A stretch of 64,000 nt of DNA from an uncultured archaeon (GCA_963799775.1 CAWCYD010000003.1:1856001-1920000), one strand, 5' to 3'. Positions 12,224-55,078 are shown, counted from the stretch's first letter. Program-made: numbers and translations. Notes: generated from the sequence alone by a model not told the origin.

Positions 12224-12381
12224 GTGTCACCGTACTAACTCGCAAGCGAATTGCCCCCCGGCGGAGGGGCGATGAATCCTATGATTCGCGAAACCCATCA
12301 TTTCTTCGCAATTCAGCGAAACGAGGGCATTTCAGGCGGTTACGTCAAGTCGTCTTCCCGTTCAATCATGGGCCGAGGAAT

Positions 12382-12933
12382 CTAAAGTTCATCTGCAGTT
12401 GACATAGCCCGATTGGTAGTCGTTTCTGTTGAATCTTGAGGATACAAGGGATAAGGGAAGTGTTCCACATCCTCCGTACTTACTACGGCAAAGTCGATCC
12501 TTAGCAATCTACCTTTGAATCCCAATTGTGTCGCAACAGGCGTGAGAACAGTGTCGCTAACCTGTAGTTCAGATTGTGAAGCGAGAGCAAATCTTAGCTT
12601 CAGTAATCTACCCTCTCCGGCGTTAAGGAAGACTGGCACGCTTCCTTCTGTTGGACTTCCTTCGGCTCTTGTAATCACATCTCCCACTAAAGGAACAGTT
12701 GCGGTGACCTTAGTTACCGATGTTCCTCGACCTCCTCTGTTCTTGGCATAGAACTCAAGGTAAACAGATCTTTGAATACGACCTGACGTGTCAGGCTTCT
12801 CTTCGTAGTACCCCCACTTTGGAGTAATGCGCAAGTCGGGCCTCTGCGATTGATGGCTATCATAGAGGGCATATAGCGAAATAACCAGAGCTGATATTGC
12901 TACAATCAACTCGGCAACAGAGATGATGTCCAT
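12382..12933 (-). CDS. Hypothetical membrane-anchored protein
   Basis: N-terminal TM helix; fills one inter-repeat interval. Confidence 0.6.
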   Translation of the reverse strand: MDIISVAELIVAISALVISLYALYDSHQSQRPDLRITPKWGYYEEKPDTSGRIQRSVYLEFYAKNRGGRGTSVTKVTATVPLVGDVITRAEGSPTEGSVPVFLNAGEGRLLKLRFALASQSELQVSDTVLTPVATQLGFKGRLLRIDFAVVSTEDVEHFPYPLYPQDSTETTTNRAMSTADEL

Positions 12934-13095
12934 AGCCGTGCGCCGGTTTGATTGAGTCAATTATCAGTTTCGTGTCGAGCGGGAGGCGCAATGAACCCAT
13001 ATGCATGGCAACAACTTGCCCATTTTATCGAGAGCTAGCGGAAGCTAGGACGTTCGGACAAATTCATTTATGGTTCGAGCCTTGCTTTCTCATCC

Positions 13096-14052
13096 ATGCG
13101 AGCGCGATTAAGCGAAATCGTCCTAGCTCTCGCGGGGGGCTTGTTCGGTCTCCTCCTTTACTTCATTTCTAGCGCCTTCCCTCGTCCAACGTTCGGCGGC
13201 GCCTCATTCTGGGGTTTCCCTCTAACATACGGGGTAACCGGCGGAACCTGCTTTGGTAACTGCTCTACCTTTACTCCCCAAGAGCCGGCTTTCGCGGCCG
13301 ACCTGGTTTTCTGGATTGCCGTGGGAGTTGTCACAGCCGAAGTTCTTGCTAGGAAGATACTGCCAAACAGAATGGATGAATCCTGGCCGTGGGCGAAAGA
13401 TCGAGAGACAATGGATGTCGAGTCCAAGTGGCCAGGAAAGGTGCTCTCGGTACTTCTTGTGGGCCTAATCATAGGAATGGCTTTCGCCTTCTTCGCAACG
13501 TCGACTGCAGGCGTCTTTGGTATGACCGCGACAGTCACCACGACGTCGACGGTGACAACTACGGCCCCTCCGGGTTCGAGCACCAGCGTTAACGCGCCCG
13601 ACGACGGGGTTGACCTCGAGGGATGTAGCCTGACCACCAAGACGTGCACTTTTCTGATACAGAATTTCGACCTGATGGACGGCTATGCCATTACACTAGG
13701 ACGGGACGGGATGTGTGTAACCGCGACCTACACATCGCCAACCTCTGTCAGTTCATTCGTCAACGAAGACGCGGGATGTACGACTCCTTCGAACTCGACT
13801 TACATCGCCAACAACGGCGCGACCACCGTAGTCACGGCGGTCTTCTCAGGGTGGTCACCAGGTGCAGGGTCGAACGAGCCGCCGACCGCCGGCCAATCCA
13901 TATGGGGATGCATCCTCTACACCTCAGGAGACGGATTTGGGTGTCTCGCGTTCACAGGGGTCTTCACTAATTCCGGCACCACATCTCAGGGCTATCTAAC
14001 GACAACTCAAGTGGTCACTTCGACCGTGACGGTCACAGCAACTTCTCCCTGA
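13096..14052 (+). CDS. Membrane protein with Thr/Cys-rich extracellular domain
   Basis: Three hydrophobic segments and Thr-rich tracts; fills one cassette. Confidence 0.65.
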   Translation: MRARLSEIVLALAGGLFGLLLYFISSAFPRPTFGGASFWGFPLTYGVTGGTCFGNCSTFTPQEPAFAADLVFWIAVGVVTAEVLARKILPNRMDESWPWAKDRETMDVESKWPGKVLSVLLVGLIIGMAFAFFATSTAGVFGMTATVTTTSTVTTTAPPGSSTSVNAPDDGVDLEGCSLTTKTCTFLIQNFDLMDGYAITLGRDGMCVTATYTSPTSVSSFVNEDAGCTTPSNSTYIANNGATTVVTAVFSGWSPGAGSNEPPTAGQSIWGCILYTSGDGFGCLAFTGVFTNSGTTSQGYLTTTQVVTSTVTVTATSP

Positions 14053-14624
14053 CTCGTCTCAAATGGAAGGATGCCAGGCGGAGGCGCAATGAACCTAGTA
14101 GCTAACAGAGAGGAGTCTGGACATACCAATCCTGATAATCCCAGTTTTCCTTTAGGACATACCACTTCCCGTTGTCTCCCTGATTAGTCCACTGCTGCTG
14201 GACATTGGCGGTCTCGTTGGTCGCACCGAAGATCTCCCTTGTGCCTACAAACACGTAGCTGAAAGTGGCATTGATTGTTGCTGTTCCGATGTTCTTCAAC
14301 ACAATATTCGAGACGGTCACAACGGATGGAGAAGAGCCGAAGTCTTGGAACTCCGAACCGTAGAGCCCACGAATGTAGAACCGTTCTTCAGGGTACCTGC
14401 GTAGTCCCCGTTGAGTACGAGGTAGTTGCAGATCTCTTCCCTTCCATAAAGTTTGAGCTGGATTTGCGCGGTGTTCAAGGACGAGTGCAACGAGACAACG
14501 GACGAGTTCGTGTAGAAATCCATCATGGCGTCAATGTTCTTGTCTTCGATTGCTTGCTCCCACTGATTGAGTTGGAGCTGCACTCGCGACTTGGCTTGAG
14601 AGGAGGACGCAGCCGACGAGTAAG

Positions 14625-15810
14625 CAGTATCTCCGAATGACATAGGGTCACCTCCGTCAGGTTGCCAATGGGATTAGGAATGTGAGGAGGAGGGAGACCT
14701 TGACCTCCAATGCGATGATATGCTCTTCATCGTCGCGTCCGTCCTCTCCATTGTCGTTGCGCTCTGAAGAGTTCAGGATGCACCATGCGTTGTATAGGCA
14801 TACTGCCACCGCGTAGTAGAGTAGCCTAACCGTGAAGCTCTTCGATTTCGTCCTCGGAAGGAAGATGTTGTGCTCTCTGTAGGCGGTCTCCACTCCCCAA
14901 CGGGTCTTGTAACGCTTCAGCAGGCGCTTCGGCCTGCACGACATGTTCGTGGCGAAGAGGTAGCTGATCTTCGTCTCCTCGTCGTCGACCCTGACGAGCT
15001 TGAACGGTCTGTCGCAAGGATAGGAGACAGATTGACCGTCCTTGAGGTCGATCCTCTTCGTCAGCCGGTTGGGCGTGAAATGGATTGCATACAGGTATCC
15101 GTTCTCCTGGAGCCAAGAGGGGAGCTCGAGCGATGAGAACCCTCCATCGAAGAGGAGATACCTAACCCTGATTCCCATGTTCCTTATCCGGTTGAGGGCG
15201 TCCTCGATGTAATCCAAGAGATACTCCCTGCTCTTGATGGGCGTCAGGACGATCGTGAGCCTCCTCCCATCGGCGAGGATGCTCGCGGTGAGGTACTGGT
15301 AAGCGTAGCAAGAGCCGGCCTTTGGCCTCGTCCCGTTGACCATGTCGGTCTCATTATCGCCATAAAACATCTGGTCGTGCCAATCAAACGCAATCGGGAC
15401 CGGTCTCTTCAGCAACCCCTTTCTCTTCAGCTCGCCTACCTGCTCCTCGAGGACGATGGAGACGACGCTCTGGAGCTCGTATCTCTCGATGCTCTTGAAG
15501 CGCATAAGCGCGGTGTCGGAGTTCGGTACCCCGGCTCCAAACTTATTGGAGACGTTGCTCATTCCTTCCGCGTAGGCATTGAGTACAGACGAGTTGACAA
15601 GGAGACGGATATAGTCCGCCTTCGTGTACAAGTAGCTGGGCTTCACCTCGAAGCACAGTAGCTGGGGCAGGCATCGCATCATGACGGTATCGAAGCCTCT
15701 GGCTAGATGATTGGAGATCATAGCTGAGGCTTCGGGGTGAAGACTCCCTACGCCCCAAAATCATAACTTGTTGAGCGACGGCTAAAATCCGCACTCATTC
15801 GGAGATACTG
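14625..15810 (-). mobile_element. ISH3-family (IS4 superfamily) insertion sequence, 1186 bp
   Basis: Perfect 16-bp terminal inverted repeat CAGTATCTCCGAATGA (14625-14640 / 15795-15810); TAAG target duplication (14621-14624 / 15811-15814). Confidence 0.92.
14657..15721 (-). CDS. DDE transposase (ISH3-like)
   Basis: IAFDWHDQMFYG, LLFDGGF, YKTRWGVETAYR. Confidence 0.92.
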   Translation of the reverse strand: MISNHLARGFDTVMMRCLPQLLCFEVKPSYLYTKADYIRLLVNSSVLNAYAEGMSNVSNKFGAGVPNSDTALMRFKSIERYELQSVVSIVLEEQVGELKRKGLLKRPVPIAFDWHDQMFYGDNETDMVNGTRPKAGSCYAYQYLTASILADGRRLTIVLTPIKSREYLLDYIEDALNRIRNMGIRVRYLLFDGGFSSLELPSWLQENGYLYAIHFTPNRLTKRIDLKDGQSVSYPCDRPFKLVRVDDEETKISYLFATNMSCRPKRLLKRYKTRWGVETAYREHNIFLPRTKSKSFTVRLLYYAVAVCLYNAWCILNSSERNDNGEDGRDDEEHIIALEVKVSLLLTFLIPLAT

Positions 15811-16271
15811 TAAGAGACGTAGATGGCTGACGCGAGTACAACTAGGACGATTACGAGTGCGACCCTCACTAGACACTTGAGGCCGACACCAGTTCTTGCA
15901 GGCTGCACCGGGTGTTGGTATCGCACAAATATTTACGAGTTGTGAGGACGGTCGCTTGCTCTCGCCCTTCACAATGGTTATCCGATGTCGTGGCTCGCTA
16001 GCTTCTCAGGTGGCTTGGGTTGGCATTGGCAGACGAACGCGGTTAACTTGGTGGCCGACTATTTTTTCTGGCTTGAGATGTCTGCCGCAGGACTTTTCTC
16101 TGTCATCCTTCTGCAACGCAAGAGAAATGTCGAACTCCACACACTGAACAGCTGAGAGCTACCTTGCGGGAGGCGCAATGAACCCCTATGTGCGGCGACT
16201 GCTTTTCTCCGGCTCGGCAAGACTCGACGTTCGGACAAAGGCATTTATCGAGCAACGTCATTCACAAAATC

Positions 16272-16553
16272 ATGAAGAGATGGCCGAAGACCGTGCTTGT
16301 CCTTGCCGCAGTAATCGGCCTCACATTTCTGGTTCTTCTTCTCCCTTTGCTGCCTTTCACTGAAGGCTTTGGGTGCGCGGGAGCGGTGATCATTGGGTGC
16401 GCCCCTGATCACGCATCGGCGAGCTTCTACCTCTTTGGGTCCGGATACCTGTCCACACCTCACGGCGCGAACTCCTATTACTCGTGGTGCACAGCGAATC
16501 CTGGAGGGGGCGGGTTCACGTGCCGCAACGGCGCGTTCCAGGTCCCCTGGTAG
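16272..16553 (+). CDS. Small Cys-containing exported protein
   Basis: Basic N-terminus, TM helix, four Cys. Confidence 0.55.
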   Translation: MKRWPKTVLVLAAVIGLTFLVLLLPLLPFTEGFGCAGAVIIGCAPDHASASFYLFGSGYLSTPHGANSYYSWCTANPGGGGFTCRNGAFQVPW

Positions 16554-16699
16554 CCAAACACGAGAAGTCCACAGCATGCGCCCGGCAGGCGCAATGAACC
16601 CTTATGCATGGCGAATGCCCTGCATTCTTGTCAAACCTAGCGGAAGCTGGAATGCTCGGACAAAACGATTAATGAGGCCAACCCATCCAAGCATTCAGT

Positions 16700-17283
16700 T
16701 TGGCACGTCAGAGGCCTGCCTTCAGTCCACCCATTGTCTTCGTGGCGGTGGTTGTAGCCGTAGTCTTGGCGATCGCTCTCGCTGACTTCGCTACCGGGCC
16801 TATGCCAGTCTCTTCTGGTTCGTCGGCTGCTCCCTCTATTGGCGGAACGAAGGAAACAACGACAGTGACAGTTACTGGTGGCCTTGGCACCGCAGCGGCC
16901 ACGGCGCTGAACGGCGCAACCTACTACATGGACAACGTGACGAGCATAATGTGGGCCGAAGACCCGGGCACCTTCCACTTCAACAACAGATCCATCACCT
17001 TCCATGGGGTAACGTTCCAGACGATCTGCACGGCACAGTTCAGCGACTGTCCGGCGTTCCTCCTCCCACTCCAGGGGTCACCTACGCCGTTGCATCGGGT
17101 GCCGGAATAACCTTGAACGTCACGTTCTCTGACCACATCAGCGAGATCATTTCAGGAGGTTTCCCATTAGTGCCTGTCCGCTTTTCCGCATACTCTCATC
17201 ATACAGACCCCCAGGCTGGAATCCTGATCGTCTATACCAGCTCCAACCCCGAATACAAATCCTACCTGCTTGTGTCAGTTTAA
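16700..17283 (+). pseudogene. Frameshifted secreted protein
   Basis: Overlapping ORFs 16700-17110 and 16951-17283 form one product with a shift near 17060. Confidence 0.55.
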
Positions 17284-17392
17284 CATCACAAACCCGCAAG
17301 CCTCCCCGCCGGAGGCGCAATGAACCCTGTGTGTGGCGACAAGCCTCTTAACCCGACAATCCTTTAATCGACGCCTTCGATAACAGAATTGC

Positions 17393-17713
17393 TTGCCCAG
17401 GCCGTTGAACCTGGTAAAATGGGCGCCGTTGTGTGCAAGCTCAGTTCAAGATCTGCCTGAGGGCGAACGCAACAAGAAGATCAAATCCATGAAATCGGTG
17501 CTGGAGGAACGCAAGGATGCGGGAGACCACGTTCCAAGAGGCCTCTGGCCGCGAGACAAGGCGTATGATGGGATCACGAACCTTTACAGGTATGAAATCG
17601 ACAGGGAGATGAGAGCGACCTACACCATCGGCAGAATAGACGGCAAGTGGGTGGTCACGGTGATCGAGGTCTTCTGGAACCACAAGAGCTACGAAAGAAG
17701 GTTTGGATACTGA
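17393..17713 (+). CDS. RelE-like small protein (possible toxin)
   Basis: 106 aa, basic, NLYRYEI..MRATYTI..VIEVF..H..Y pattern. Confidence 0.55.
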   Translation: MPRPLNLVKWAPLCASSVQDLPEGERNKKIKSMKSVLEERKDAGDHVPRGLWPRDKAYDGITNLYRYEIDREMRATYTIGRIDGKWVVTVIEVFWNHKSYERRFGY

Positions 17714-17719
17714 ACCTGG

Positions 17720-18010
17720 CTACTTGATTACTACCGACGAATCGAAGAGCGCCTTGAGCTTCGGGTTGTCGGCAGCCACCCATACAATCCTCCCATGTCT
17801 GTCGATGAAGACTTTGCCAGTCGTTACCAGGATCTCTAGCGCGTTCTCGAAGGCCGCAGTGGTCGTATCCGGGGGCAACACCTTGCGCAGTTCGGTCTTT
17901 GTCGGCGGTAGGTCAGACCCTTTTATCGTCCTCTCAATCAATATCAACAGCGAACGGTCGGAAGCCGCGGCGCGACCATCACGTTCCCGGGGCCGAGGAG
18001 TCAAGGTCAT
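17720..18010 (-). CDS. Small winged-helix-like protein
   Basis: TKTELRKVLP..ALEILV..GKV..GRIVW; convergent with the RelE-like gene. Confidence 0.5.
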   Translation of the reverse strand: MTLTPRPRERDGRAAASDRSLLILIERTIKGSDLPPTKTELRKVLPPDTTTAAFENALEILVTTGKVFIDRHGRIVWVAADNPKLKALFDSSVVIK

Positions 18011-18065
18011 AAGACGAGGCCTGAGATGTCATACGTTTTCATGTTATTAAACGTGGATACCATTG

Positions 18066-18157
18066 CGCTGGAAGCCTTTCGGGCGACCAGTTCAGCCCGT
18101 CCACTACCTATAGCTCAACGTGCGGATGAAATGCCCCGGCGGAGGCGCAACGAACCC
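18066..18157 (+). repeat. Long repeat copy (23S 3' end + BHB half)
   Basis: CGCTGGAAGCCTTTCGGGCGACCAGTTCAGCCCGTCCACTACCTATAGCTCAACGTG..GGCGCAACGAACCC. Confidence 0.95.
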
Positions 18158-18175
18158 AAGCAGGGCGAAACTATG

Positions 18176-18571
18176 TCAGTGAGCTTCTAGGATCGTCTGC
18201 TTGGCCCGTTCGTCGAAGGTCACAAGAAATCTTTCGAAGACGGCCCTTCTTCCGAGGAGACTGAGAGGCAGCCTGTGGCTCGCGGTGAACGCAACCTCAG
18301 CTTCAAACTCCTCGTTCCCTATCTTCAATCTGATTCTGTGGAGGTAGGCGTTTATCGTGCCGCCGATACCAGAAGGTCTGATCCGCTCGCCGCGGTCGAT
18401 GGTCAGTCCCAGGACTCTCCCAATCTGCCCGTCGAAGAGGCTTACGCTCGCGCCCGAGTCGACCAGCGCCTCCGAGGCCACCCACGGACCATCAGAGAGT
18501 CGCAACTCAAGTGGGATTATTGGAAAGTTGGAACCCCTAAAGGGCACGTATCCGAACTCGTATTTCGTCAA
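18176..18571 (-). CDS. Retropepsin-like (clan AA) aspartyl protease
   Basis: ALVDSGA, GIGG flap, LLGR. Confidence 0.85.
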   Translation of the reverse strand: MTKYEFGYVPFRGSNFPIIPLELRLSDGPWVASEALVDSGASVSLFDGQIGRVLGLTIDRGERIRPSGIGGTINAYLHRIRLKIGNEEFEAEVAFTASHRLPLSLLGRRAVFERFLVTFDERAKQTILEAH

Positions 18572-18792
18572 AGAATCAGGAGTTCTTCATCCTTCTTGGG
18601 GACGTAGAGCACCAGGGGCACTTGCTTTGGATGGATCCTCGTCGCTTTCTTGTGTGCCTCGCCGAAGCTCTTGCCATCAGCGACTATCTTCCTGTCAAAT
18701 ACGGCGATCCATCGCCCAGAGTGCTTCTCCGCCTCGGCGTGGTGCTTGACCAGCCATTCGTGCTCCTCCTTCAAGGAAGCCATGCTCGGCAA
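18568..18792 (-). CDS. DUF5678-like small protein
   Basis: GRWIAV..KIVADG; overlaps the aspartyl protease start. Confidence 0.75.
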   Translation of the reverse strand: MPSMASLKEEHEWLVKHHAEAEKHSGRWIAVFDRKIVADGKSFGEAHKKATRIHPKQVPLVLYVPKKDEELLIL

Positions 18793-18950
18793 CTAGATTC
18801 CACCAAGTAATATTACTTTTGAGGCCTCGGGGCAGGAGAATTTCGGCGACCCAACTCGGCCCACTGCCTTCAGCTGCATTTCATAGAAGCTAGCGAGAGC
18901 TTGAACCGTCATCCGAATGAGTTAGAAGACAGTCTCGTGTCGCTTTCTTC

Positions 18951-19637
18951 ATGATTTGCGCCCGAAGCAGAGCAGGGCTTAGCGCCACAGTCATAATTCT
19001 GGGCATCATAGCGATTCTCCTTGTCACTGCTATCGGCTTGTATGTTGCATACACGCCCGCCGAGCCTCCCGTCCCGAACATCCATACCAATTCGACAACT
19101 CCAACCCTTAGCACAACCACCAGCCTTCCTCTCACTACCACCAGCGATTCCGCCTTGTCATCAGGCAACAACTTTCCTTTGGCGGTGGGCGATTATGCTC
19201 GTTACACTGGAACTGCCTTGGAGCACCTGGACCGGAGCAAGACCAACGAGACCGTCATTGTCGAGGTCGTATCAATCAATGCCAGCGGCGTCGAGTGGAG
19301 ACAGATTACGAACACTTCAACGGTCTCCAATCAGGAGTCATACATCGTCCCTCTTGGAGCGTCACCCTTCCATTCTAACAGTTCCGGGATGACTTTCGTT
19401 CCTGTCAGCACTGAGAACATGGTCAGAGTCATCGGGTCGAGGGTCTACAATGTCACGGCAATGGTGTACGACGATGGGAATAACGGTTCTACGACCTTCT
19501 CTTACTACTATCGAACTTGGACGACCCTCATCCCGATCGAGACTAGCTCGCAGTCGGCCCTACCACTCGGCAACACGACCGATGACCTTTTCCTCACTGA
19601 GACGAACATCCCGTGGATGATCACTGTTCAACCATGA
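18951..19637 (+). CDS. Secreted S/T-rich surface protein
   Basis: RAG-LS followed by a hydrophobic stretch; N-glycosylation sequons. Confidence 0.65.
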   Translation: MICARSRAGLSATVIILGIIAILLVTAIGLYVAYTPAEPPVPNIHTNSTTPTLSTTTSLPLTTTSDSALSSGNNFPLAVGDYARYTGTALEHLDRSKTNETVIVEVVSINASGVEWRQITNTSTVSNQESYIVPLGASPFHSNSSGMTFVPVSTENMVRVIGSRVYNVTAMVYDDGNNGSTTFSYYYRTWTTLIPIETSSQSALPLGNTTDDLFLTETNIPWMITVQP

Positions 19638-19761
19638 GCCCGGCGGAGGCGCAATGAACCGCTACCGCGCACGGTCTCAACGAGTCAGCGAGAACCGGAC
19701 CTGACCACCGAACGAGGTAAGAACAGGCTGCTCTCACGCGGTTGCCAGCTTTAGGGCTGAT

Positions 19762-20535
19762 TTGGACTTGAACCTGAGAAGAAAAGAGAGCGCCTTCATT
19801 CTCGCGCAGGTGGTCATCACCCTCGCGGTCCTTGCGCTCGTTTCGATTCCAGCAGTCTCCAGGCTGTCTACGAACGACGGGTCTGTTGTCTTCTCGTCCG
19901 GGGTCTCGCCCGACGGCCTCCAGCTCGAGATGGCGCTGAACTCCACCGCGATGCGGGTGAACGGGTCGATCGGCGGCCACGTATCGGTCGTCAACACGCT
20001 CGGCACAGACGTCACCGTCGTCGTCCCAGAGCCCAGCCAGAAGATGTCGGACTGGAGCAGATACACCAACATCTGCCCGACTTCCAACTTTGAAGGCTAC
20101 GCGGTGTTCATCGGGCGCTATTCGGCGGACAACATCTCTCTGGCAGGAGAACCCTTGACGTTGGTCCCGCCCATGATCCTAAATTGCGTCATCCCTTACT
20201 ACGTCCCCGGTCCACTCACCTTCTCCCCTCACGGGGGTCCCTCGGGTCAGACCGTGGTCTACGCCCAGAGCCCCTCGAGCACCAAAGAAGATCGACTCCT
20301 TATCACCACGCTCTTCTGCAACACGACAGAGTCTGGCCCTCAGAGCTTTAGCTGCAGCTGGGCCTCTCCAGGGCTCGTCGGCTATTGGGAGGGCGGCCCT
20401 GGCTCGCCCGCCAACTTCGGCTTCACCTCTCCCGGCTTTGCGCGGTTCTTTCCCGGGGTCTACACGATCATGGCGTGGGATGTCTGGGATCAGTACGTCT
20501 TTGCGAGGGTCGTCGTGACGAGCGCTGTACGGTGA
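19762..20535 (+). CDS. Secreted surface protein (paralog of 20694-21353)
   Basis: GLQLEMALNST, GYW, PGVYTI.AWD.WDQ. Confidence 0.65.
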   Translation: MDLNLRRKESAFILAQVVITLAVLALVSIPAVSRLSTNDGSVVFSSGVSPDGLQLEMALNSTAMRVNGSIGGHVSVVNTLGTDVTVVVPEPSQKMSDWSRYTNICPTSNFEGYAVFIGRYSADNISLAGEPLTLVPPMILNCVIPYYVPGPLTFSPHGGPSGQTVVYAQSPSSTKEDRLLITTLFCNTTESGPQSFSCSWASPGLVGYWEGGPGSPANFGFTSPGFARFFPGVYTIMAWDVWDQYVFARVVVTSAVR

Positions 20536-25569: not shown

Positions 25570-25574
25570 TTATT

Positions 25575-42800: not shown

Positions 42801-42824
42801 ATACGAGGGTCAGTTTTTGAAATC

Positions 42825-46762: not shown

Positions 46763-46790
46763 GCGCCCCGGCGTAGGCGCGATGAGCCCC

Positions 46791-47449: not shown

Positions 47450-47744
47450 TGTCTGATGCCTATGTGCAATATGTGCATTCACATACTAATAAGGCTCTCG
47501 CGGCGACTTCGACCAGTTCACCCTGGTGCCTTACCCATTGCCGCTCGACTACCGATTGTTGAATCCCCCGGCGGAGGCACATTGGACCCTATGCAGGGCC
47601 AGAATGCTGACGCGTCGTTCTTGGTCGCCCGCGCCGGCTTGAGCAGCTTCGGATGTGGCCGTCGCTATCGCAAGAAATCCGTTCGGGGACCCTAAAGGCA
47701 GCGAATCGGCGGCTTAAATAGCGACACAAGGCTGGACCTACCCG

Positions 47745-48116
47745 ATGCGGACGCAAGCGCAAGAGGAGACGGAGGCAGAGGATTGGGCGCAGACCGAGGA
47801 ACGCCGCAGAAGGATTTACGAGGAGCTGTGGCACGCCGACGAGGAGCGGGTCAGAAGGCAGCGTGAGAGAGACCCCTACAATAATCGCCGAAGAGAGGAA
47901 AACGACGACCGTCGCAATCCGTTCGACCTAGGCGCCGTCAAAGAGATTCCAAGGGCAACCCAGGTCTTGGGCGTCAGGGTCGGCGCAACCGAGGTCGAGA
48001 TCAAGGCAGCTTACAAGAGGATGGCCATGGTGTGGCACCCGGACAGACCGGGGGGATCGGCAGAGAAGATGAAAGACCTCAACGAAGCGAAAGAGATCCT
48101 GCTGCAGGGGCTTTGA
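47745..48116 (+). CDS. J-domain protein
   Basis: [22 protein letters not shown]. Confidence 0.8.
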
Positions 48117-48209
48117 GCCTGTCCGAAACAAAGTGAATGTGACCGGGTTGTCGCGCGGTCTGTCGTCCATCGTGCGGATGAAATGCCGCCCGAGGCGCAA
48201 TGAACCCTT

Positions 48210-49485
48210 ATGCATAGGAAGTGTCTCACGATGCCCGAAGGCTATTCAGTCGTGTCACTTGGTGATTACTCGGTTGGACGTTGGCTTACCGAGAAATTGG
48301 GGAAATTCGGTCTCGATTCTCCAGAAGCGTCGTGGGCGCATCTACACATTTCCAACAAATTACGAAGACAGGCTTCACAATCCCCTGCAGGAAGTCTTCA
48401 CCTCCAGGGCCAATTCTACGAGTCCATCATTTACGAATATGTCAGGAAGCTCAGTCTTACCAGCAATTCCATTCTTTCAGTAGTAGCACGATCAAACGAC
48501 GCCCCAAAGGACGAGCGCACGCGCGAATGGAGGCGAGGTCAAGATGGTTTGTTTTACGACTCCAATGGGAGTCCGATTGTCCGAGGGGATGGTCAGGATC
48601 TCGCGGAATTTGACATTCTGGTTATTGGCCATCGCAATGTCTTCGTCCTACTGGAATGCACTACAAGCAGAAAGAGGATACTTAATCCTGATTTTGGCGA
48701 GAAGATAGCCTACAAACGAAGGCTCATCAATTACTTGTTCAGCCCAGAAAGATTAGAGTTTGTGCTAGTAACCCCTTTCAATCTAGCTGCTGAGGAAACA
48801 ATTCAAGCTTTGATGCGCCAACCTTCCAATTACCTTGCCAAGTCGGCCACAGCGAAATCATCCGGTTCGCGAGATGAGTTTCTCAAGAGTCACGAGCAAC
48901 GAATTCCTTATTCTAAGAAACTGAGGTCGTGGACATTCCTCTCTTCACGTGCCTTGGACTACGCTAAAGTCGTTGAACGCGAACGACAAGACCTGATTCG
49001 TGCACCCGGCTCTGGCACCTCTGTCGACGCAGTTGTGGCTGATCCAAGCCGGTCGCCGATAGTGAAGAATGTCATACTCGGTGTGCTAGACCGTCAGGCG
49101 ACAAAGTTTCTTTTGGAAAGCATGGAGGTGATTGTCGAAGGACATCGGCTAAGAAACGAAGACTTCGAGCACGAATACACACGCGCATCACTAGGGCTCA
49201 GTTTTCCCAATCTGGAGACCTGGATTGTACCTGAATGTTCGCGACATGCAAAATAGCCTAAAAATGGGACTGGGATCTCTATCTAGGTTCGAATTCGAAA
49301 GAAATATCGGCTATCGCGGAGGACTTCTCAATATTCTCGAAGGCCCGCTGCCGCATCTAGATGCCCGCACAACGAAAGTCTTACTAGACTTCTATACGAG
49401 GCAGTCAGTTGTCGGGCTAAAGAAGAAGTCAGAGTACGAAAGGCCGAAGTTAAGTGCGCGAGACTTCTCAGCCGAGGCGCAATGA
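48210..49485 (+). pseudogene. PD-(D/E)XK nuclease-like protein, probably frameshifted near 49230
   Basis: G.FYE..AEFDIL..LLECT; the second ORF ends inside a repeat. Confidence 0.55.
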
Positions 49486-49586
49486 ACCCTTACGCATGGC
49501 GAGACTAGATCTTAGCAAGCCTACTCGAGCCTCCGGCCCCCCAAAGTATTTATCGACCGAAGTATGAATATCATACCGACAGGCAA

Positions 49587-49867
49587 TTGGAAGAACCGGA
49601 GATCGCCGTGGTAGGGACCAAGGGGCAGTTCGTGATCCCCCAGGACTTGAGGCGGCGCCTCGCGATCACGCCGAAGACGAAGCTCGCGATATACCGGAGG
49701 GGAGACAAGCTGGTGGTCGCGAAGCTGAAGGCTGCCCGACAGCCGGGGAGGAGCTGGACGAGTTTTTCGCCGAGATAGACGAGGGGAGCAAGAGAGCGGC
49801 GAGCGAGCAAGAGATACTCAAAGAGATACAGGCGTACAGGAAGGAGAAGAGACCGAGAGGTAACTGA
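49587..49867 (+). pseudogene. AbrB antitoxin, frameshifted near 49740
   Basis: VGTKGQFVIPQDLR; C-terminus continues in another frame. Confidence 0.7.
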
Positions 49868-49869
49868 CG

Positions 49870-50271
49870 CTGACCCGTGTCGTCATCGACACGAACGTCC
49901 TCGTCTCGGCGGTGTTAGGCCACGGCAAGCCGCGCCGCCTCCTGAGGCTCCACACGGCAGTCGCGTCCAAGGAGATGCTCGCAGAGCTCGCCGACGTCCT
50001 CGAGAGGGAGAAGTTCGCGCTGACACCCGCGCAGATCACCAGGTTACTGACCATCTACGCCCGCAGGTCTGAAGTAGTCGACCTGGACCGACGCGTCAAT
50101 GCAGTCGACGCAGACCCTGACGACGACATCGTGCTGGGCACCGCGGTCAACGGCGGGGCGACACTCATCGTGACAGGGGACAGGCACCTACTCGAGATGC
50201 GAGAGTTTGAAGGCGTCCGGATCATCCCCGTGGATTCCGCGCTCAAGACCTCGTCTGCGGAACGAGCCTAG
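49870..50271 (+). CDS. PIN-domain toxin
   Basis: RVVIDTNVLVSA, DPDDD, IVTGDRHLL; start uncertain. Confidence 0.88.
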   Translation: MTRVVIDTNVLVSAVLGHGKPRRLLRLHTAVASKEMLAELADVLEREKFALTPAQITRLLTIYARRSEVVDLDRRVNAVDADPDDDIVLGTAVNGGATLIVTGDRHLLEMREFEGVRIIPVDSALKTSSAERA

Positions 50272-50366
50272 TGACGCATCCATCGAGTGCAGTCGAACGC
50301 CTAGGCGGAGGCGCAACGCTTTTTCTGCTATCGCATTTATAGGAAGGATTCACTTGATTTTGTATC

Positions 50367-50915
50367 ATGAGCTTCTTGCAAGGCCTGAGTGTTGCTTGCA
50401 AAAAATCCTCATCCGAGTGCAGGAAAATCTCCGAGGAGACAATGTTCTTCATCGATCGAGGTACTAGGGACTCAGAGGTATACGGGTCCGAGTCAGAGGC
50501 AACCTTCAAGGCGATTCTATACAACAGACTTAGGGGTCTTTGCACGCGTCCGAACGAACTGGCGTTGGAGCCCCTTAGAGTCTACGAGAACGTGGATTTA
50601 GCGTATTGCAAAGGGGGTTTGACTTGGAGAGAAGATCAATCAGAGGTTCACCTAATCGAAGTAAAGGAAGTTGCGAAGCAAGAACGCAAGGACGCGCTGT
50701 ACGCTCACAACATAAAAGCGCTCATCGATGACATCGAAAGCCTTCAGGACGCCAAGAAGCGTTTCCGGAACTCGGTCCTCATTTCGATTGCCGCTTGCGT
50801 CGATCACGACTCGAAGGCATATTTGTCGAATCTTCCCAAGCTGGAGAAAGAACTACCTTCAGAGCTTAAACGACGAGGAGCGAACCTCACGGGAATAAAT
50901 TTCATCGTCTGTTGA
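50367..50915 (+). CDS. PD-(D/E)XK nuclease-like protein
   Basis: SEA..VDL..LIEVK. Confidence 0.55.
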   Translation: MSFLQGLSVACKKSSSECRKISEETMFFIDRGTRDSEVYGSESEATFKAILYNRLRGLCTRPNELALEPLRVYENVDLAYCKGGLTWREDQSEVHLIEVKEVAKQERKDALYAHNIKALIDDIESLQDAKKRFRNSVLISIAACVDHDSKAYLSNLPKLEKELPSELKRRGANLTGINFIVC

Positions 50916-51041
50916 TTCTGAGCTTGGTGTTTCAGGCGGAGGCACAATGAAACCCCATGCCCTTTACCGCCGCCCGGCATTTGGTGCTCACCCGGTAATT
51001 CTTATTTACCGGGCGCTCGACCACTCTCCCGGTATATCGTC

Positions 51042-51281
51042 TTGACCAACGAAGGAAAGGTCGCGAAGAAGTACGCTCTTTATCCGCCAAAGGGTCTCAT
51101 GGCGCAGCTCGGCCTGAAGGAGGGACAGAAGGTCAGGTACGAGGTAGAGGGCGGGAAGCTCGTCGTGGAATTGTTGCCGGATCCGATTGACCTGGCGCTG
51201 AGCTCGAAGAAGTGGGCCAGAACGAGCGCACGAGAGCTGGAGATGCTTTCAGAGAGGGAGCAATCAGAACTCGATGCCTGA
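51042..51281 (+). CDS. AbrB-type antitoxin
   Basis: LYPPK..LGLKEGQKV..VEGGKLVV. Confidence 0.8.
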   Translation: MTNEGKVAKKYALYPPKGLMAQLGLKEGQKVRYEVEGGKLVVELLPDPIDLALSSKKWARTSARELEMLSEREQSELDA

Positions 51282-51750
51282 CGTATTGCTAGACACCTCG
51301 TTCCTGCTTCCCACCCTTGGGCTCGATGTCAGGGAAATCACTACATCCGACCTAGAATCGATTCGGGCCGCGTCCAAGAAAACCAAGTTCCACTGCTCCT
51401 ACGTTAGCTTCGTCGAGATTCTGGGACTGGTCGGGAAGGAATCGAGGAAGGTAGACGACAAGACCGTCCGCGCTGGCATCAACAGCCTTCTTGGCTCCGG
51501 CCTCTATGAATGGAGCAACCCTTCTCCCGGGGCGGTACAACTCGCGCTCGAGTTGCGGACGAAAGGGCACAAAGATAACATCGACAATATCCTGTTCGCG
51601 ACGGCCTCCTCCTCCAAGATGCTCTTTCTATCGCTCGATGAGGAGCTGAAGAGGTTCCTTGCAAAGAACGGGTACGACACCGGCCTGATGGTGAAAGTGG
51701 ATGAGTTAGCGGCCAGGGTCGGCGTGCCTTGGCGAGCCGGTCAGAAGTAG
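51274..51750 (+). CDS. vapC: PIN-domain toxin
   Basis: LLDTSFLL, D.ID.ILFATA, LSLD. Confidence 0.85.
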   Translation: MPDVLLDTSFLLPTLGLDVREITTSDLESIRAASKKTKFHCSYVSFVEILGLVGKESRKVDDKTVRAGINSLLGSGLYEWSNPSPGAVQLALELRTKGHKDNIDNILFATASSSKMLFLSLDEELKRFLAKNGYDTGLMVKVDELAARVGVPWRAGQK

Positions 51751-51872
51751 GACGGGACGTCCCAAGGTAGTGAAACGCCTAGGCGGAGGCGCAAGAAGAC
51801 ACTTCTTCGAAGGCGGGTGTCGGTCGATTGGTTTAAGGTCGGGCCGCACCCTCCGATCTGGCGCTCCATCCC

Positions 51873-52763
51873 GTGATGCTGACCATTACGTCGACCAGGA
51901 AGCTCAACTCGGGCACGGAGATACCCGCGCTCGGGCTCGGCGTGTTCCAGGCGCCGCCCGGCAGGGTCACCCAGGAGGCCGTGAAGTTCGCCCTGAAGAC
52001 GGGCTACCGGCACATCGACACGGCGAGGGTCTACGGGAACGAAGAGGACGTCGGCCGGGGGATCAGAGACAGCGGGGTGCCGCGCGAGCAGGTCTTCGTC
52101 ACCACGAAGCTCTGGAACGCCGACCAGGGCTACGACTCTGCCCTGTCCGCCTGCGAGGCGAGCCTGCGCCGGCTCGGGTTCAGCTACATCGACCTCTACC
52201 TGATTCACTGGCCGGTCCCGGGGCTCAGGGGCGAGTCCTGGAGGGCGCTCGTGGAGCTCCAGCGACGAGGCTCGTGCCGGGCCATAGGCGTGAGCAACTA
52301 CACGGTCAGGCACCTCGAAGAGCTATCCGACAGCTCGGATGTCACCCCCGCCGTCAACCAGGTCGAGTTCAACCCGTTCCTCTACCAGAAAGAGCTGCTC
52401 CGCTTCTGCAGCAGCAGGGGGATACAGCTCGAGGCCTACAGTCCACTGACCCGCGGGCACAAACTCGACCACCCCGTGGTCCTCGACGTCGCCAAGAGGC
52501 ACTCCAAGAGCCCCGCGCAGGTCATGATCCGGTGGGGCCTGCAGCACGAGCTCGTCGTGATACCAAAGTCGACCCGCCCCGAGAGGATAGAGGAGAACAG
52601 CCGGGTCTTTGACTTTGACCTCTCGCCGGCCGACATGACCAGTCTCGACTCTCTCAGCGAGGACCTGCACACGGTCTGGGACACCCACGGACGAACCCTA
52701 GGAACGCAGGGAGGCATGAGTGAAATGCCCAGGCGGAGGCGCAATGAACCTTATGCATGGTGA
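51873..52763 (+). CDS. Aldo/keto reductase
   Basis: GYRHIDTA.YGNE, DLYLIHWP, IGVSN, IPKS; C-terminus runs through a repeat. Confidence 0.93.
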   Translation: MMLTITSTRKLNSGTEIPALGLGVFQAPPGRVTQEAVKFALKTGYRHIDTARVYGNEEDVGRGIRDSGVPREQVFVTTKLWNADQGYDSALSACEASLRRLGFSYIDLYLIHWPVPGLRGESWRALVELQRRGSCRAIGVSNYTVRHLEELSDSSDVTPAVNQVEFNPFLYQKELLRFCSSRGIQLEAYSPLTRGHKLDHPVVLDVAKRHSKSPAQVMIRWGLQHELVVIPKSTRPERIEENSRVFDFDLSPADMTSLDSLSEDLHTVWDTHGRTLGTQGGMSEMPRRRRNEPYAW

Positions 52764-53454
52764 ATTCTGTACTGCTCTTATCCTTAAAGAACTAAAAGTG
52801 TCAGATGGGGACACTCGCCACATCGTGGACTCATCAAATCCGGCTGGAAGGATTGTCGACGACGCCTATAACCGGAAGAGAAGATCGGTTATTGCGAATA
52901 CCAAGGTTCTAGTCTTCGGACCGGGTCCAGGGAACGAAAATCCCGGATTTCTCGAACGAGAAGCAATAAAGGATACGCTAAAACAAGCAGGCTGCAGGGC
53001 TGATTACCCTGAATCAATTCTAATTGGGGGTAACGCAGTATTCGGTGAGAGCATACTAATCGGCGATTACAATCTTGTCTTCATTTTGTTGATGGGTCTA
53101 GGCTCATAGCATAGAATTCTCGCATTTCGTCCAGAGAGAGTTTGTAGCACAAAAGGTTAGATTGTTCCAAGAAAAGAAGTACAAGATGACCGAAAGTTTC
53201 CTTAACGAAGTGCTCGAGCCATTCTGCGCATTGTACAGACAATGCTATTATTTTGATGATCGGAATTCGTTAATCTCAGCTGCCAAACAGTGCTTCGAAG
53301 AATACGTCTCATTCGTAGTAATTATCGGTCTCCGTCCCTACTAACATCGCCGGGGAACTCAGTGGTTCACTGATCAAGTCAATAAATTTAAATATCAAGG
53401 CGAGTCCAAAATTGCATCTCCGCTGATTGAAATTTGGAAGTAAGTAACGAAGGC

Positions 53455-54894
53455 ATGGACTTCATAGAAGCCGAAAAAATCGCCGCAGTGATGCGGATGG
53501 CCAAACCCAACGTCACCGTAATAGGTGTCGGCGGGGCCGGAAGCAACATTGTCTCCTGGCTGAAAGAACGAGGGATCTCCGGAGGCAAACTCATCGCTGC
53601 TAACACAGACGCAGCACACTTGAGCATCACCAAGGCGGATCGCAGGATTCTCATGGGTGAGAAGCTCACGCACGGCCAGGGCGCCGGAGGGTACCCTCAG
53701 CGCGGTGCGGAAGCCACAAGGGAGTCAATCGGCGACTTTCAGAAGGAAACACAAAACAGCAACATCATCTTCCTTTGCGCAGGCCTCGGAGGAGGCACTG
53801 GAACGGGCGCAATCGAAGTCCTCTCCAAGGAACTAGCAAGGCAGGGCCGCCTAGTCATCGGTGTCGTGACTTTGCCGTTCTCGTCCGAGGCGTACAGGTA
53901 TGATAACGCGAAGAACGCTCTGAAGGTACTCCGCCAGTACTGTGACACCGTAGTAGCCATTGAGAACACCAAACTGTTCAAGGTTGTCGAAAACTTCCCT
54001 GAGCAAAACGATGGCAAAACCAAGTCGGAGGTTCCCAAGTTCAACTCCGAAGAGGCAAATCTTAGAATCAAGGCGCTGAACGACAAAACTAGGCGAGAAA
54101 TAATAGGAATATTATACGTCAATGGACCCACGTTTCACACTGAGATTGCGAAACGCGTTGGGCTCAAGCCAAACGAACTATCCTATCATCTCGGGTTGTT
54201 AGTTGATGCTGGATATCTACGACATGTTTACTCAGATAAGCGGATTGGGAAATCATTCTCGACATACTCCGTGACCGAATTAGCCATCGGGTTCTTGGAT
54301 TTCATTGGTGCCAAGGCAGAATTAGATTTTGCAATGAAAGCGCAACAGCCCTCCGTTCGCGACGAGCCTGATTCTCGTAGGACACACGCATTAGAAGTGC
54401 GGACGTTTGCGGTTGCAAACGAGTTGGCAGGTCAGTTCATCAAGGGGTTGACAGAGACCATAACCACGGCCAGTCTCATCAACATCGACTACGCGGACCT
54501 TAGGGCGATATGCGAGCGCAAGGGCCTAGCAAGTATCGGTGTTGGAGAGGGGAAGAGCTCCGACAGGGTCGAGGTCGCGATCAGGCGCGCTATCGCAGGA
54601 CAGCTGCTGGACATCAAGGACGTCACCAAGTCACAAGGGGTGCTGGTCCACGTGACAGGTAGCTCGGACCTAACACTGGAGGAGGTCACGAAGGCCGGCG
54701 AACTTGTAACCAAGTCGTTACCTCCGAACGTCAGGATTGTCTGGGGCGCACGCGTAGACCCGTCTCTGGAAGGCCGTGTCAAGTGCATGGTCATGCTCAC
54801 CGGCGTCGAGAGCGCTCTCCTCGCACAGCAAGAATACAACTTCTCGTTCGGCCCAATGAAGAGCGAAGCCAAATCAGGATGGCGGAAAAACTAG
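53455..54894 (+). CDS. ftsZ: FtsZ homolog with an internal winged-helix insertion
   Basis: GVGGAGSN, GAGG, GLGGGTGTG, INIDYADL, IVWGA; ~130-aa ArsR-like insert. Confidence 0.9.
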   Translation: MDFIEAEKIAAVMRMAKPNVTVIGVGGAGSNIVSWLKERGISGGKLIAANTDAAHLSITKADRRILMGEKLTHGQGAGGYPQRGAEATRESIGDFQKETQNSNIIFLCAGLGGGTGTGAIEVLSKELARQGRLVIGVVTLPFSSEAYRYDNAKNALKVLRQYCDTVVAIENTKLFKVVENFPEQNDGKTKSEVPKFNSEEANLRIKALNDKTRREIIGILYVNGPTFHTEIAKRVGLKPNELSYHLGLLVDAGYLRHVYSDKRIGKSFSTYSVTELAIGFLDFIGAKAELDFAMKAQQPSVRDEPDSRRTHALEVRTFAVANELAGQFIKGLTETITTASLINIDYADLRAICERKGLASIGVGEGKSSDRVEVAIRRAIAGQLLDIKDVTKSQGVLVHVTGSSDLTLEEVTKAGELVTKSLPPNVRIVWGARVDPSLEGRVKCMVMLTGVESALLAQQEYNFSFGPMKSEAKSGWRKN

Positions 54895-55078
54895 ACATGA
54901 CGGCGAACCATCTTCTCGTGATTGGCCACAACCTCTTCCGGCGACCAAAGCTCAACGTGCGAGTGAAATGCCCCGGCGGAGGCGCAATGAATCCTTTATC
55001 CATTGCAAACATCCTATTCATTAGGTGATTTGGTAATTCATCATTGTTATAAGGAATCAGAAGGGGAAAGCCCCTTCC

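Follow-up and report, generated by a model that had tools for sequence, protein, structure and literature searches.

Behind the rRNA operon of an uncultured archaeon stands a long series of short repeats, each resembling one arm of a pre-rRNA processing stem, and the question raised by this locus is whether the variation among them reflects pairing as RNA, as the original prediction held, or the movement of the DNA that lies between them. To the following reading of the window (the whole 64,000-nucleotide stretch analysed) we assign a probability of roughly 70%: the array is the product of DNA cassette exchange at a core within the 23S rRNA tail, and the variants among its copies are inherited stems, cassette lineages and decay rather than the outcome of per-copy selection on RNA. 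The features on which the argument turns are these:

5747..7244, +, 16S rRNA gene (Rfam RF01959, 1474 bits)
7435..7471, +, 5' arm of the 23S processing stem, GCCGTGCATA GGGTTC GCGC AAGCA TCCGCCGGGG (sequence; cofold)
7478..11442, +, 23S rRNA gene (Rfam RF02540, 2417 bits; sole match in genome)
9517-9772, group I intron inside the 23S rRNA gene (Rfam RF00028)
11433..11500, +, resident tail: 23S 3' end, 3' arm and small hairpin with a T run
11447..11470, +, 24-nt core: inner-helix 3' strand, 4-bp central helix, AAT bulge (11462-11464) and GAACCC
11435..55963, +, cassette array with 54 same-strand tail copies; cassettes of 391-2243 bp

The rRNA tail and its copies

Archaeal pre-rRNA bulge-helix-bulge stems are cut by the splicing endonuclease. 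The resident tail, whose 3' arm reads CCCCGGCGGA G GCGC AAT GAACCC TT TATGCACGGC, forms just such a canonical motif with the 5' arm: 3-nt bulges on opposite strands, AAG and AAT, flank a 4-bp GCGC helix, with helices of 10 and 16 bp on the outer flanks. The array copies, in contrast, represent the 3' arm only, and the canonical motif is formed by the resident copy alone. The 5' arm is single-copy, the 21-mer at 7445-7465 being unique genome-wide even with up to four mismatches; a second 5' arm is absent from the genome on the same terms (one occurrence, as against 57 3' cores).

All the repeats are spare 23S rRNA tails, for which the resident tail is the template. Each comprises up to ~70 nt of 23S 3' end, the bulge-helix-bulge 3' arm and a short trailer hairpin; the copies match both the 23S end and the trailer, and the target 23S gene is left intact. 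Searching with nhmmer finds 54 copies in the window, at 11435-55963 and all on the + strand, and 29 more elsewhere in the genome, where clusters of copies are likewise uniform in strand. A 10-mer with at most one mismatch gives 18 matches where 2.04 are expected, and a 24-mer with at most three mismatches gives 10 where 0 are expected. Arm length varies among copies, consistent with decay: in many the arms are unrecognisable and ~24 nt are kept, as in the core-only copies at 14073, 19639 and 29544. Core conservation is 65-99% over 257 copies. The copies behind the resident tail, with one inserted element, are listed below (E-values from nhmmer).

12256..12295, +, repeat copy, bulge GAT, GAATCC, E 3.6e-05
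12975..13018, +, repeat copy, E 2.3e-10
14073..14095, +, repeat copy, core only, E 6e-04
14612..15816, -, IS element (DDE transposase) inserted within a cassette
16165..16206, +, repeat copy, E 6.8e-09
16585..16622, +, repeat copy, E 1.9e-10
17304..17346, +, repeat copy, TGTGTGTGGC, E 6.3e-10
18123..18177, +, repeat copy, bulge AAC, 23S-end homology back to 18066, E 2.6e-10
19639..19660, +, repeat copy, core only, E 1.9e-04
20568..20613, +, repeat copy, E 3.9e-12
21361..21396, +, repeat copy, bulge AGT, E 9.4e-06
21762..21799, +, repeat copy, GAACTC, E 3.4e-05
22535..22575, +, repeat copy, E 9.6e-10
22923..22960, +, repeat copy, E 7.5e-08
23536..23572, +, repeat copy, left end of cassette recurring at C3:1355718-1357150, E 2.9e-07
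24940..24986, +, repeat copy, E 1.4e-13
25615..25661, +, repeat copy, E 1.4e-09
26186..26234, +, repeat copy, AAC, GAGCCC, E 4e-10
27146..27182, +, repeat copy, E 3.3e-07
27951..28009, +, repeat copy, 23S-end homology from 27910, E 2.3e-14
28680..28712, +, repeat copy, E 3e-05
29544..29570, +, repeat copy, core only, E 3.7e-05
29957..30006, +, repeat copy, TGTGTATGGC, E 1.5e-14
31248..31289, +, repeat copy, E 1e-08
32222..32249, +, weak partial copy, E 2.2
32265..32307, +, repeat copy, E 1.7e-10
33043..33097, +, repeat copy, TGTGTATGGC, E 7e-13
33894..33921, +, repeat copy, left arm only, E 1.7e-04
34260..34275, +, weak partial copy, E 0.42
34823..34856, +, repeat copy, AAC, 23S-end homology from 34761, E 2.4e-06
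35585..35625, +, repeat copy, E 6.8e-09
36117..36136, +, weak partial copy, E 1.5
37070..37120, +, repeat copy, GAT, E 7.3e-12
38222..38273, +, repeat copy, E 3.1e-11
38877..38930, +, repeat copy, resident-tail homology 38837-38956, E 7.5e-11
40327..40360, +, repeat copy, E 6e-06
41105..41158, +, repeat copy, E 3.7e-13
41811..41864, +, repeat copy, E 1.2e-15
42711..42756, +, repeat copy, AAC, E 7.6e-09
43499..43518, +, weak copy, AAG, E 0.91
44254..44301, +, repeat copy, GGCAC, AAC, GGACCC, E 1.7e-10
44690..44738, +, repeat copy, AAC, E 2e-09
45659..45697, +, repeat copy, GAT, E 2.2e-04
46202..46232, +, repeat copy, TATGCGCGGC, E 3.8e-07
46765..46801, +, repeat copy, GAT, E 9.4e-04
47559..47605, +, repeat copy, GGCAC, E 4.5e-06
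48174..48225, +, repeat copy, E 1.7e-09
49459..49506, +, repeat copy, E 1.3e-09
50292..50317, +, weak copy, E 0.19
50933..50960, +, repeat copy, GGCAC, E 0.0096
51769..51794, +, weak copy, E 0.032
52717..52769, +, repeat copy, E 1.4e-13
54959..55015, +, repeat copy, E 2.2e-12
55940..55963, +, weak copy, last in window, next copy beyond it at C3:1921245, E 0.25

Cassettes and their exchange

About 50 small cassettes are stacked directly behind the single 23S rRNA gene, each bounded by a tail copy; six genomes together yield 239 cassettes with a median of 855 bp. What lies between the copies shows no relationship from one cassette to the next and encodes diverse proteins, an accessory and mostly unknown cargo (a Pfam family for 12 of 31 ORFs) whose families include two PIN proteins, GNAT, CorA and thermopsin. 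The host is a soil archaeon, and its relatives are of Nitrososphaerota type. Of 22 genomes from the same genus 19 have a 14-nt core, as do 33 of 36 from the same family, and a genome may hold as many as 73 copies. The array layout recurs in five further genomes, including a single-contig chromosome; four relatives, those with fetched DNA extending far behind the 23S gene, have same-strand arrays of 13, 36, 56 and 59 copies there. Some cassettes recur at other positions, in different genomes or in different arrays within one genome, in shuffled order and with core-to-core lengths that agree (857 vs 858 bp, for example, or 1051 vs 1047 bp). The genome also has secondary arrays, located away from the rRNA gene. 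A literature search found no published description of such 23S-tail cassette arrays.

Near-identical cassette pairs (at least 90% identity) locate the exchange inside the 24-nt core in 8 of 8 cases. Median arm identities for these pairs are 0.51 (left-X), 0.85 (left-Y), 0.83 (right-X) and 0.51 (right-Y), with 0.49 for random pairs; the right arm of the left repeat and the left arm of the right repeat accompany their cassette, and the exchange point therefore lies within the core, CCCCGGCGGAGGCGC-AAT-GAACCC, a 24-nt zone that centres on the bulge. Joints in the low-depth metagenome contigs, the only public runs, connect one repeat to another and have short sides, a pattern that repeats alone would give; these contigs showed neither a circular cassette nor an excision event.

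Cassettes would, on the reading that we favor, move as DNA via recombination at the core, most likely site-specific and carried out by a putative recombinase acting in trans. A cassette landing beside the 23S gene would supply the working outer portion of the 3' arm, and the pool of cassettes would retain rRNA-like tails for that reason; invariance of the core would follow from two needs, that of the resident copy still to form the processing motif and that of exchange itself.

The array itself offers little by way of an enzyme: no recombinase gene is found in its 44 kb, the genome's five PF00589 matches all lie outside the window, and no serine recombinase (PF00239) was found in the genome, which is 81.67% complete. 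A zinc-ribbon tyrosine recombinase does adjoin some copies. In the integrase-DnaJ-core module the left arm is conserved and the right arms differ in two genomes; secondary arrays begin at a core with a non-rRNA-like left arm, adjoining this module. Relatives of the zinc-ribbon integrase at E <=1e-60 were found in only 8 of 41 family genomes, and among 59 loci of this integrase in public genomes only 3 have a repeat close by, so it is not the general enzyme. Zinc-ribbon recombinases score 20.9 and 23.4 bits on TIGR02249 (integron integrase, cut-off 265) and 44-68 bits on NF040815 (XerA, cut-off 220), for which the best match in the genome, at 151 bits, is C3:9034-9903, far from any array.

The same array could also be maintained with no dedicated recombinase, RadA homologous recombination between tails gaining, losing and shuffling cassettes in the manner of an "additive" flexible genomic island. 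We take this alternative seriously and judge it unlikely. The array lacks an integrase, and the candidate is missing from most array-bearing genomes searched; no longer stretch than the 24-nt core, moreover, is shared identically by nearly all copies, so that homology-driven crossovers would also resolve in the core. However, the ~24 nt that many copies retain are very short for homologous recombination and normal for a site-specific enzyme, and the secondary arrays' start at a core beside the integrase-DnaJ module likewise argues for the latter. So does the 3-nt spacing at the center, indel-free in 50 of 54 copies (13-nt core matched with at most four substitutions and no indel). Against the favored reading stands the 23S-end-like left arm of cassettes, for which exchange always within the core would not account.

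Variation among the copies and RNA pairing

Might the tail copies nonetheless be read as RNA? They could be dual-use, serving at the DNA level as the exchange sites of an archaeal gene-capture platform at the 23S gene and also, in read-through transcripts from the rRNA promoter, as half processing sites pairing with the single 5' arm. We regard such dual use as quite improbable. Were it true, RNA could be cut or circularised at the borders of cassettes by the splicing endonuclease and ligase, and captured genes would have their expression tied to rRNA processing.

The original prediction proposed that variation mostly preserves RNA pairing around a free 3-nt bulge. The variants that it listed are all present: bulges AAC (18149, 34849, 42726, 44712), GAT (37096, 45674, 46781), AGT (21369) and AAG (43508); GCAC helices (44270, 47577, 50942); and flanks GAGCCC, GGACCC, GAATCC and GAACTC, together with TATGCATGGC, TGTGTATGGC, TGTGTGTGGC and TATGCGCGGC. 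The constancy of bulge length also stands, given the 50 of 54 copies free of indels, but its supposed freedom of sequence does not. The resident base is kept in 43-49 of 53 copies at each bulge position, and over 257 copies these positions are 87-96% conserved, similar to the adjacent helices. Nor are the changes largely A>G or C>T with pairing preserved: scored against the resident copy and its 5' arm, just 99 of 258 substitution cells are of this pair-keeping kind, the remainder being 53 G>A or T>C and 106 transversions, and 159 of the 258 break pairs. When A>G/C>T is compared with G>A/T>C site by site, median transition rates are 6.5% at A/C sites and 4.5% at G/T sites (Mann-Whitney one-sided p 0.23; p 0.31 once site 11479, whose C>T alone provides 23 of the 99 pair-keeping cells, is removed).

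Present selection on the copies to pair as RNA with GGGTTC and GCCGTGCATA, as half bulge-helix-bulge sites in array transcripts, is accordingly very unlikely. It can draw on the outer helix of this genome, which when set against its own 5' arm has 67 G.U and 20 A.C, on A>G and C>T being the commonest single substitution classes, and on the TGTGTATGGC variant, which combines two or three wobble-compatible changes. Longest ORFs also run in the rRNA-operon direction in 165 of 239 cassettes, so read-through transcripts are conceivable. Yet in four relatives, each compared with its own 5' arm, the asymmetry is reversed (G.U/A.C of 8/23, 7/28, 9/37 and 2/8), and their working copies have A.C mismatches, in G007, G014 and G021 in the very copy beside the 23S gene. 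The pairing partner, moreover, is a single 5' arm 4 to 48 kb upstream of the copies. Self-folding was not seen either, with z from -1.86 to +0.66 (-1.9 to +0.7 rounded) in single-stranded DNA folds of 8/8 copies; the small trailer hairpin is the only fold that recurs among these eight. Per-copy selection for pairing is not supported, given the single 5' arm, the mostly pair-breaking changes and the reversed asymmetry in relatives. Wobble-type transitions do still modestly outnumber pair-breaking ones in this genome (99 vs 53 cells; in the core helices 54 vs 12 here and 105 vs 36 in relatives), and some RNA-level constraint on the cassette pool is therefore possible.

What, then, is the source of the variants? 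Four relatives have GCCATGCATA in their 5' arm in place of the GCCGTGCATA of this genome, and TATGCATGGC is perfectly complementary to GCCATGCATA. Among the variants of the 23S end, GGATGA and GGGTGA correspond to what G007, G014 and G021 carry as resident sequence, matched in these genomes by TCATCC in the 5' end. At a C/T site, C is commoner in the two genomes with a 5'-arm G there (27 C/32 T vs 10 C/82 T, counts that rest on non-independent copies). Six genomes have one and the same core sequence in their resident copy. Because the variants match relatives' rRNA stems, the copies are rRNA-tail sequences from a genus-wide cassette pool. Of the two settings proposed for selection on RNA structure, the present and donor rRNA operons, the donor operons are supported for the commonest variants and the present is not. 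The variation is best described as a three-part mix of rRNA-stem states inherited from other genus members, a few cassette lineages amplified in this genome (e.g. TGTGTATGGC) and decaying arms. It is a record of DNA exchange and common descent, and nothing indicates that the copies themselves pair as RNA.

That the repeats are inert remnants of tandem duplications of the rRNA-operon end, or an assembly artefact, with no role in gene mobility, is scarcely credible: decay to variable arm length would fit, but the layout in five other genomes (one on a single contig), the unrelated protein-coding DNA between copies and the recurrence of individual cassettes elsewhere in other genomes with the same borders all argue against it.

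Relation to integrons and tycheposon islands

Integrons (IntI, attI and attC cassette arrays) have been reported in Archaea too (bioRxiv 10.1101/2022.02.06.479319). As portrayed in the accessible part of that report, they are likewise long one-directional arrays of small, mostly single-gene cassettes, site-bounded and shuffled among relatives, with largely unknown cargo, toxin-antitoxin-type PIN genes and many arrays that have no integrase alongside (cf. CALINs). Discrete, site-bounded cassettes shuffled between relatives are found here as well. On the other hand, the site here is a copy of an rRNA-gene tail that does not fold on itself rather than an attC hairpin, and attC-like imperfect inverted repeats were not seen in folds of 8 copies. 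The platform is the end of the 23S gene, not an attI beside intI; no IntI-type integrase was found adjoining the array, with no PF00589 match within the window, and the only nearby recombinase family reaches 20.9 bits against the 265-bit integron-integrase cut-off. Finally, ~31% of longest ORFs are reversed here.

A second comparison is with the Prochlorococcus islands shaped by tycheposons, integrative elements that accrete tandemly at the 3' ends of tRNA and tmRNA genes (bioRxiv 10.1101/2020.12.28.424599). There, too, as the accessible part of the paper has it, elements attach at the 3' part of a stable-RNA gene and leave that gene whole, newcomers displace older units outward and partial gene copies are scattered in the island; the direct repeats of the present array are similarly the 3' part of an intact RNA gene. 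The units differ, those described here being ~0.4-2 kb with no integrase or replication module, and no PF00589 or PF00239 match in the array would furnish each with an integrase of its own. The target differs as well, namely the 23S rRNA processing arm (the word "rRNA" is absent from the accessible text of 10.1101/2020.12.28.424599), as does the scale: here ~50 units occupy one site, with secondary arrays elsewhere.

Repeat copies of the 23S processing arm

A large and apparently undescribed cassette array, anchored on the processing arm of the 23S rRNA, underlies the repeat variation that the original prediction had read as mostly preserving RNA pairing. The repeat is real (18 matches to a 10-mer with one mismatch as against 2.04 expected, and 10 matches to a 24-mer with up to three mismatches as against none expected), and all of the variants and coordinates that had been named for it are present. 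It is made up of the terminal bases of the 23S gene, the 3' arm of the processing stem and a short trailer hairpin carrying a T run. The 23S gene is single in the genome (2.47 Mb, 81.67% complete), and its operon is laid out as follows.

5747-7244: 16S rRNA gene
7435-7471: 5' arm of the 23S processing stem, GCCGTGCATA GGGTTC GCGC AAGCA TCCGCCGGGG
7478-11442: 23S rRNA gene, containing a group I intron
9517-9772: group I intron inside the 23S gene (Rfam RF00028, 77.5 bits)
11447-11482: 3' arm of the 23S processing stem, CCCCGGCGGA G GCGC AAT GAACCC TT TATGCACGGC

Together the two arms form a canonical bulge-helix-bulge motif, with an AAG bulge, a 4-bp GCGC helix and an AAT bulge, and the long flanking helices are supported by cofolding. 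Allowing up to four mismatches still leaves the 21-nt 5' arm a unique sequence in the genome, whereas the 3' core has 57 matches. A profile search recovers 54 copies between 11435 and 55963, every one on the + strand, at spacings of 366-2242 bases. Over 257 copies, conservation is highest in the 24-nt core around the AAT bulge (11447-11470 in the resident copy) and falls off on both sides; the bulge bases themselves are 87-96% conserved, a stretch that is somewhat inflated by anchoring on the 13-nt core. That the bulge keeps its length of 3 nt is confirmed, inasmuch as the 13-nt core fits 50 of the 54 copies without an indel. The bulge is not, however, free to vary in sequence: its substitution rate (23/201 sites in this genome, 40/477 in relatives) is near that of the paired core positions (142/1340 and 298/3180, respectively).

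The outer 3' arm, TATGCACGGC, is also able to pair with the downstream trailer GCCCTGCAT (11473-11500, and in several copies), giving a small hairpin with a T run behind it, possibly a terminator that competes with the processing stem.

Pairing and the source of the wobble-like variants

To score pairing, the 53 non-resident copies were aligned to the resident copy, that is, the working 23S tail and 3' arm at 11433-11500, with only those copies at least 60% identical in a given helix counted for that helix. Only 99 of the 258 substitution cells at paired positions keep the pair (A>G or C>T), the remainder being 53 opposite transitions and 106 transversions. Helix by helix, the pairs kept and broken are 22/47, 17/30, 0/7, 11/7, 46/48 and 3/20, and site 11479 alone furnishes 23 of the 99 pair-keeping cells. 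Nor are wobble-type changes significantly more frequent across sites, with medians of 6.5% for these and 4.5% for pair-breaking changes (one-sided p = 0.23, or 0.31 with site 11479 removed). The proposed comparison with unpaired positions yields 17 wobble-type against 27 other transitions there, but these positions were rejected as a clean mutation control because the trailer is poorly homologous and rich in transversions. The asymmetry within the core helix was likewise set aside as evidence for pairing, being confounded with position: C is found towards the edges, which decay, and G in the centre, which is invariant.

The decisive control on this question comes from the related genomes (G-numbers), in which the outer helix of every copy was scored against the 5' arm of its own genome.

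Outer-helix mismatch cells against the host's own 5' arm
This genome: G.U 67, A.C 20
G007: G.U 8, A.C 23
G014: G.U 7, A.C 28
G021: G.U 9, A.C 37
G001: G.U 2, A.C 8
G017: G.U 7, A.C 4

Leaving out the C/T site brings the figures for this genome to 38 G.U and 20 A.C. In G007, G014 and G021, even the working copies adjoining the 23S gene have A.C mismatches. Taken with the counts of the relatives, this argues that the direction of the asymmetry is set by which few variants happen to be common in a lineage. Selection on each copy to pair as RNA is thus not supported; the variation that had been described is real in detail, and the generalization drawn from it fails.

The alternative offered alongside it, that the variants reflect donor rRNA operons, is supported in that the commonest of them match the rRNA stems of relatives. 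The 5' arm carries GCCATGCATA in four relatives and GCCGTGCAT(A/T) in this genome and G017; TATGCATGGC, the cassette variant seen most often here, complements the 5' arm of those four relatives exactly, and gives G.U only against the 5' arm of this genome. Similarly, GGATGA and GGGTGA, two variants of the 23S end, occur as the resident state in G007, G014 and G021, and in these genomes TCATCC near the start of the 23S (its 5' end) matches them. At the C/T site, C is more frequent among the copies of the two G-type hosts (27 C to 32 T) than among those of the others (10 C to 82 T), counts in which the copies are not independent. These sequence matches support the view that the variant states would have been inherited from the rRNA stems of the gene pool. 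Wobble-like repeat variation can, then, arise from shared ancestry and the host's own stem sequence, and does not, taken alone, demonstrate that each copy is under selection, a lesson of method.

Cassettes, spread and the point of exchange

The array occupies 44 kb of this genome, and the arrays of relatives cover tens of kb more. The DNA between neighbouring copies is unlike from cassette to cassette, and encodes thermopsin, CorA, a methyltransferase, a GNAT protein, an Lrp/AsnC regulator, an aldo/keto reductase, two PIN proteins, an SRPBCC protein, an IS transposase and a TBP paralogue; 19 of the 31 ORFs scanned have no Pfam family. Among 239 cassettes in six genomes (median length 855 bp), the longest ORF runs in the same direction as the rRNA operon in 165 and in the opposite direction in 74.

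Several cassettes and neighbouring genes merit separate description. An FtsZ/tubulin-type protein (53434-54894) has a winged-helix HTH inserted between its GTPase and C-terminal domains, with FtsZ-like paralogues elsewhere on the contig (C3) at C3:995346-996366 (82-90% identical DNA) and C3:558565-559536. The TATA-binding protein paralogue (44779-45414, - strand; PF00352, E 9e-60) is complete, with a 90%-identical copy in the G017 array. The IS element (14612-15816), which encodes a DDE transposase, has been inserted into one of the cassettes; elsewhere the genome has four further copies of it at 99.6-100% identity and a fifth at 82%. Immediately beyond the last repeats, at 58081-62186, are defence-type genes for an AIPR protein of the abortive-infection type and a Schlafen-group-3-like helicase; with a further tail copy beyond them at C3:1921245, the variable island extends past the window. 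Upstream, a pyruvate:ferredoxin oxidoreductase beta-type subunit gene (1454-3529) contains an intein with a LAGLIDADG domain.

The 14-nt core is found in 19/22 genomes of the same genus and 33/36 of the same family, at most 73 times in one genome; among 24 genomes from other families of the order, 5 show one or two matches and the others none. The relatives G007, G017, G014 and G021 have arrays of 36, 13, 59 and 56 copies, respectively, directly behind the 23S gene and on the same strand. Same-family G030 has one partial copy 9.4 kb downstream of the 23S gene, and in other families no tail repeats were seen behind it within 20 kb (G054), 4.3 kb (G042) or 20 kb (G050).

The same cassettes turn up at unrelated positions, both in different genomes and in different arrays of one genome, with near-equal core-to-core lengths. 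Eight cassette pairs reach at least 90% identity, and in every one of them the repeat arms that face the cassette move along with it, with a median identity of 0.85 for the left repeat's right arm and 0.83 for the right repeat's left arm. The arms facing away have medians of 0.51 and 0.51, the background level (0.49 for random repeat pairs), which places the exchange inside the 24-nt core, around the AAT bulge. Exchange at this point has the first cassette supplying the outer part of the working 3' arm, and consistent with this, the outer helices of relatives' resident copies differ and are imperfect. Each landing cassette would then replace the outer part of the processing stem, such that the 23S flank would vary between close relatives. 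Among the public runs listed none was of RNA, and the DNA runs bear on excision in neither direction: in these three (low-depth soil-metagenome contigs from one study), 15/15 joints are repeat-to-repeat with sides of 20-35 nt, and repeats from many organisms would give the same joints.

The array works like an integron, although the tests for an integrase and for attC failed here, no attC-like self-folding of the repeats having been seen. In the way its units are stacked it recalls integrative elements at the ends of tRNA genes, as in the tycheposon-shaped islands (bioRxiv 10.1101/2020.12.28.424599), from which it differs in target, in unit size and in having no integrase in each unit. The window contains no tRNA gene that could serve as an anchor; a tRNA-Val is found ~1 kb ahead of a secondary array. 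In the literature searched, we found no published description of arrays built on 23S tails. A Thaumarchaeota mobilome paper (PMC6563490) has no occurrence of "rRNA" in its main text, and the main text of a Gagatemarchaeaceae genomics paper (PMC10640624) has none of 23S, integrase, cassette, mobile or repeat; the aloposons of PMC8813620 target tRNA sites and have no bearing on 23S-tail arrays. Were an rRNA processing arm to act as the docking site of dozens of mobile one-gene cassettes, this would constitute a gene-capture system distinct from integrons and tRNA-linked islands; the motif itself occurs throughout a family of abundant acid-soil archaea.

Candidate recombinases

Site-specific exchange by a recombinase acting in trans is the most likely mechanism, its main rival being homology-driven exchange at the invariant core. 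The window contains no tyrosine recombinase gene, and a search of the genome (81.67% complete) gave no serine recombinase. Elsewhere in the genome are two paralogous tyrosine recombinases, 69% identical, with a C-terminal zinc ribbon, which fall far below XerA and integron-integrase cut-offs. Behind each of these genes lies a DnaJ-domain gene, and behind that a core copy heading a small array. The same layout is seen at two further loci of this family, L037 and L041, and in the genome G020, with the core ~610-650 nt past the integrase gene; between L037 and L041, the left arm of the core is conserved and the right arm differs. As the enzyme of the array, this family was set aside on partial support, the repeat being near only 3/59 of its public loci and a close homologue present in only 8/41 genomes of the archaeal family.

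Compared with full-length homologues such as P0006, both zinc-ribbon integrase genes (L009:5763-7098 and L010:4429-5777) are interrupted at one shared point (KRKDI / DLMTKL), where each splits into two overlapping frames; a one-base difference generates the ATG with which the catalytic part begins. That paralogues this divergent share the break suggests a split gene or frameshift, as opposed to a sequencing error. Several of the integrase matches in relatives have in-frame TGA codons. Directly upstream of the L009 integrase start, at L009:5635-5755, is a tRNA-like sequence with a clear T arm (Rfam tRNA 22.5 bits, below threshold; no ARAGORN call), which may be an intron-bearing tRNA gene and that element's own integration site.
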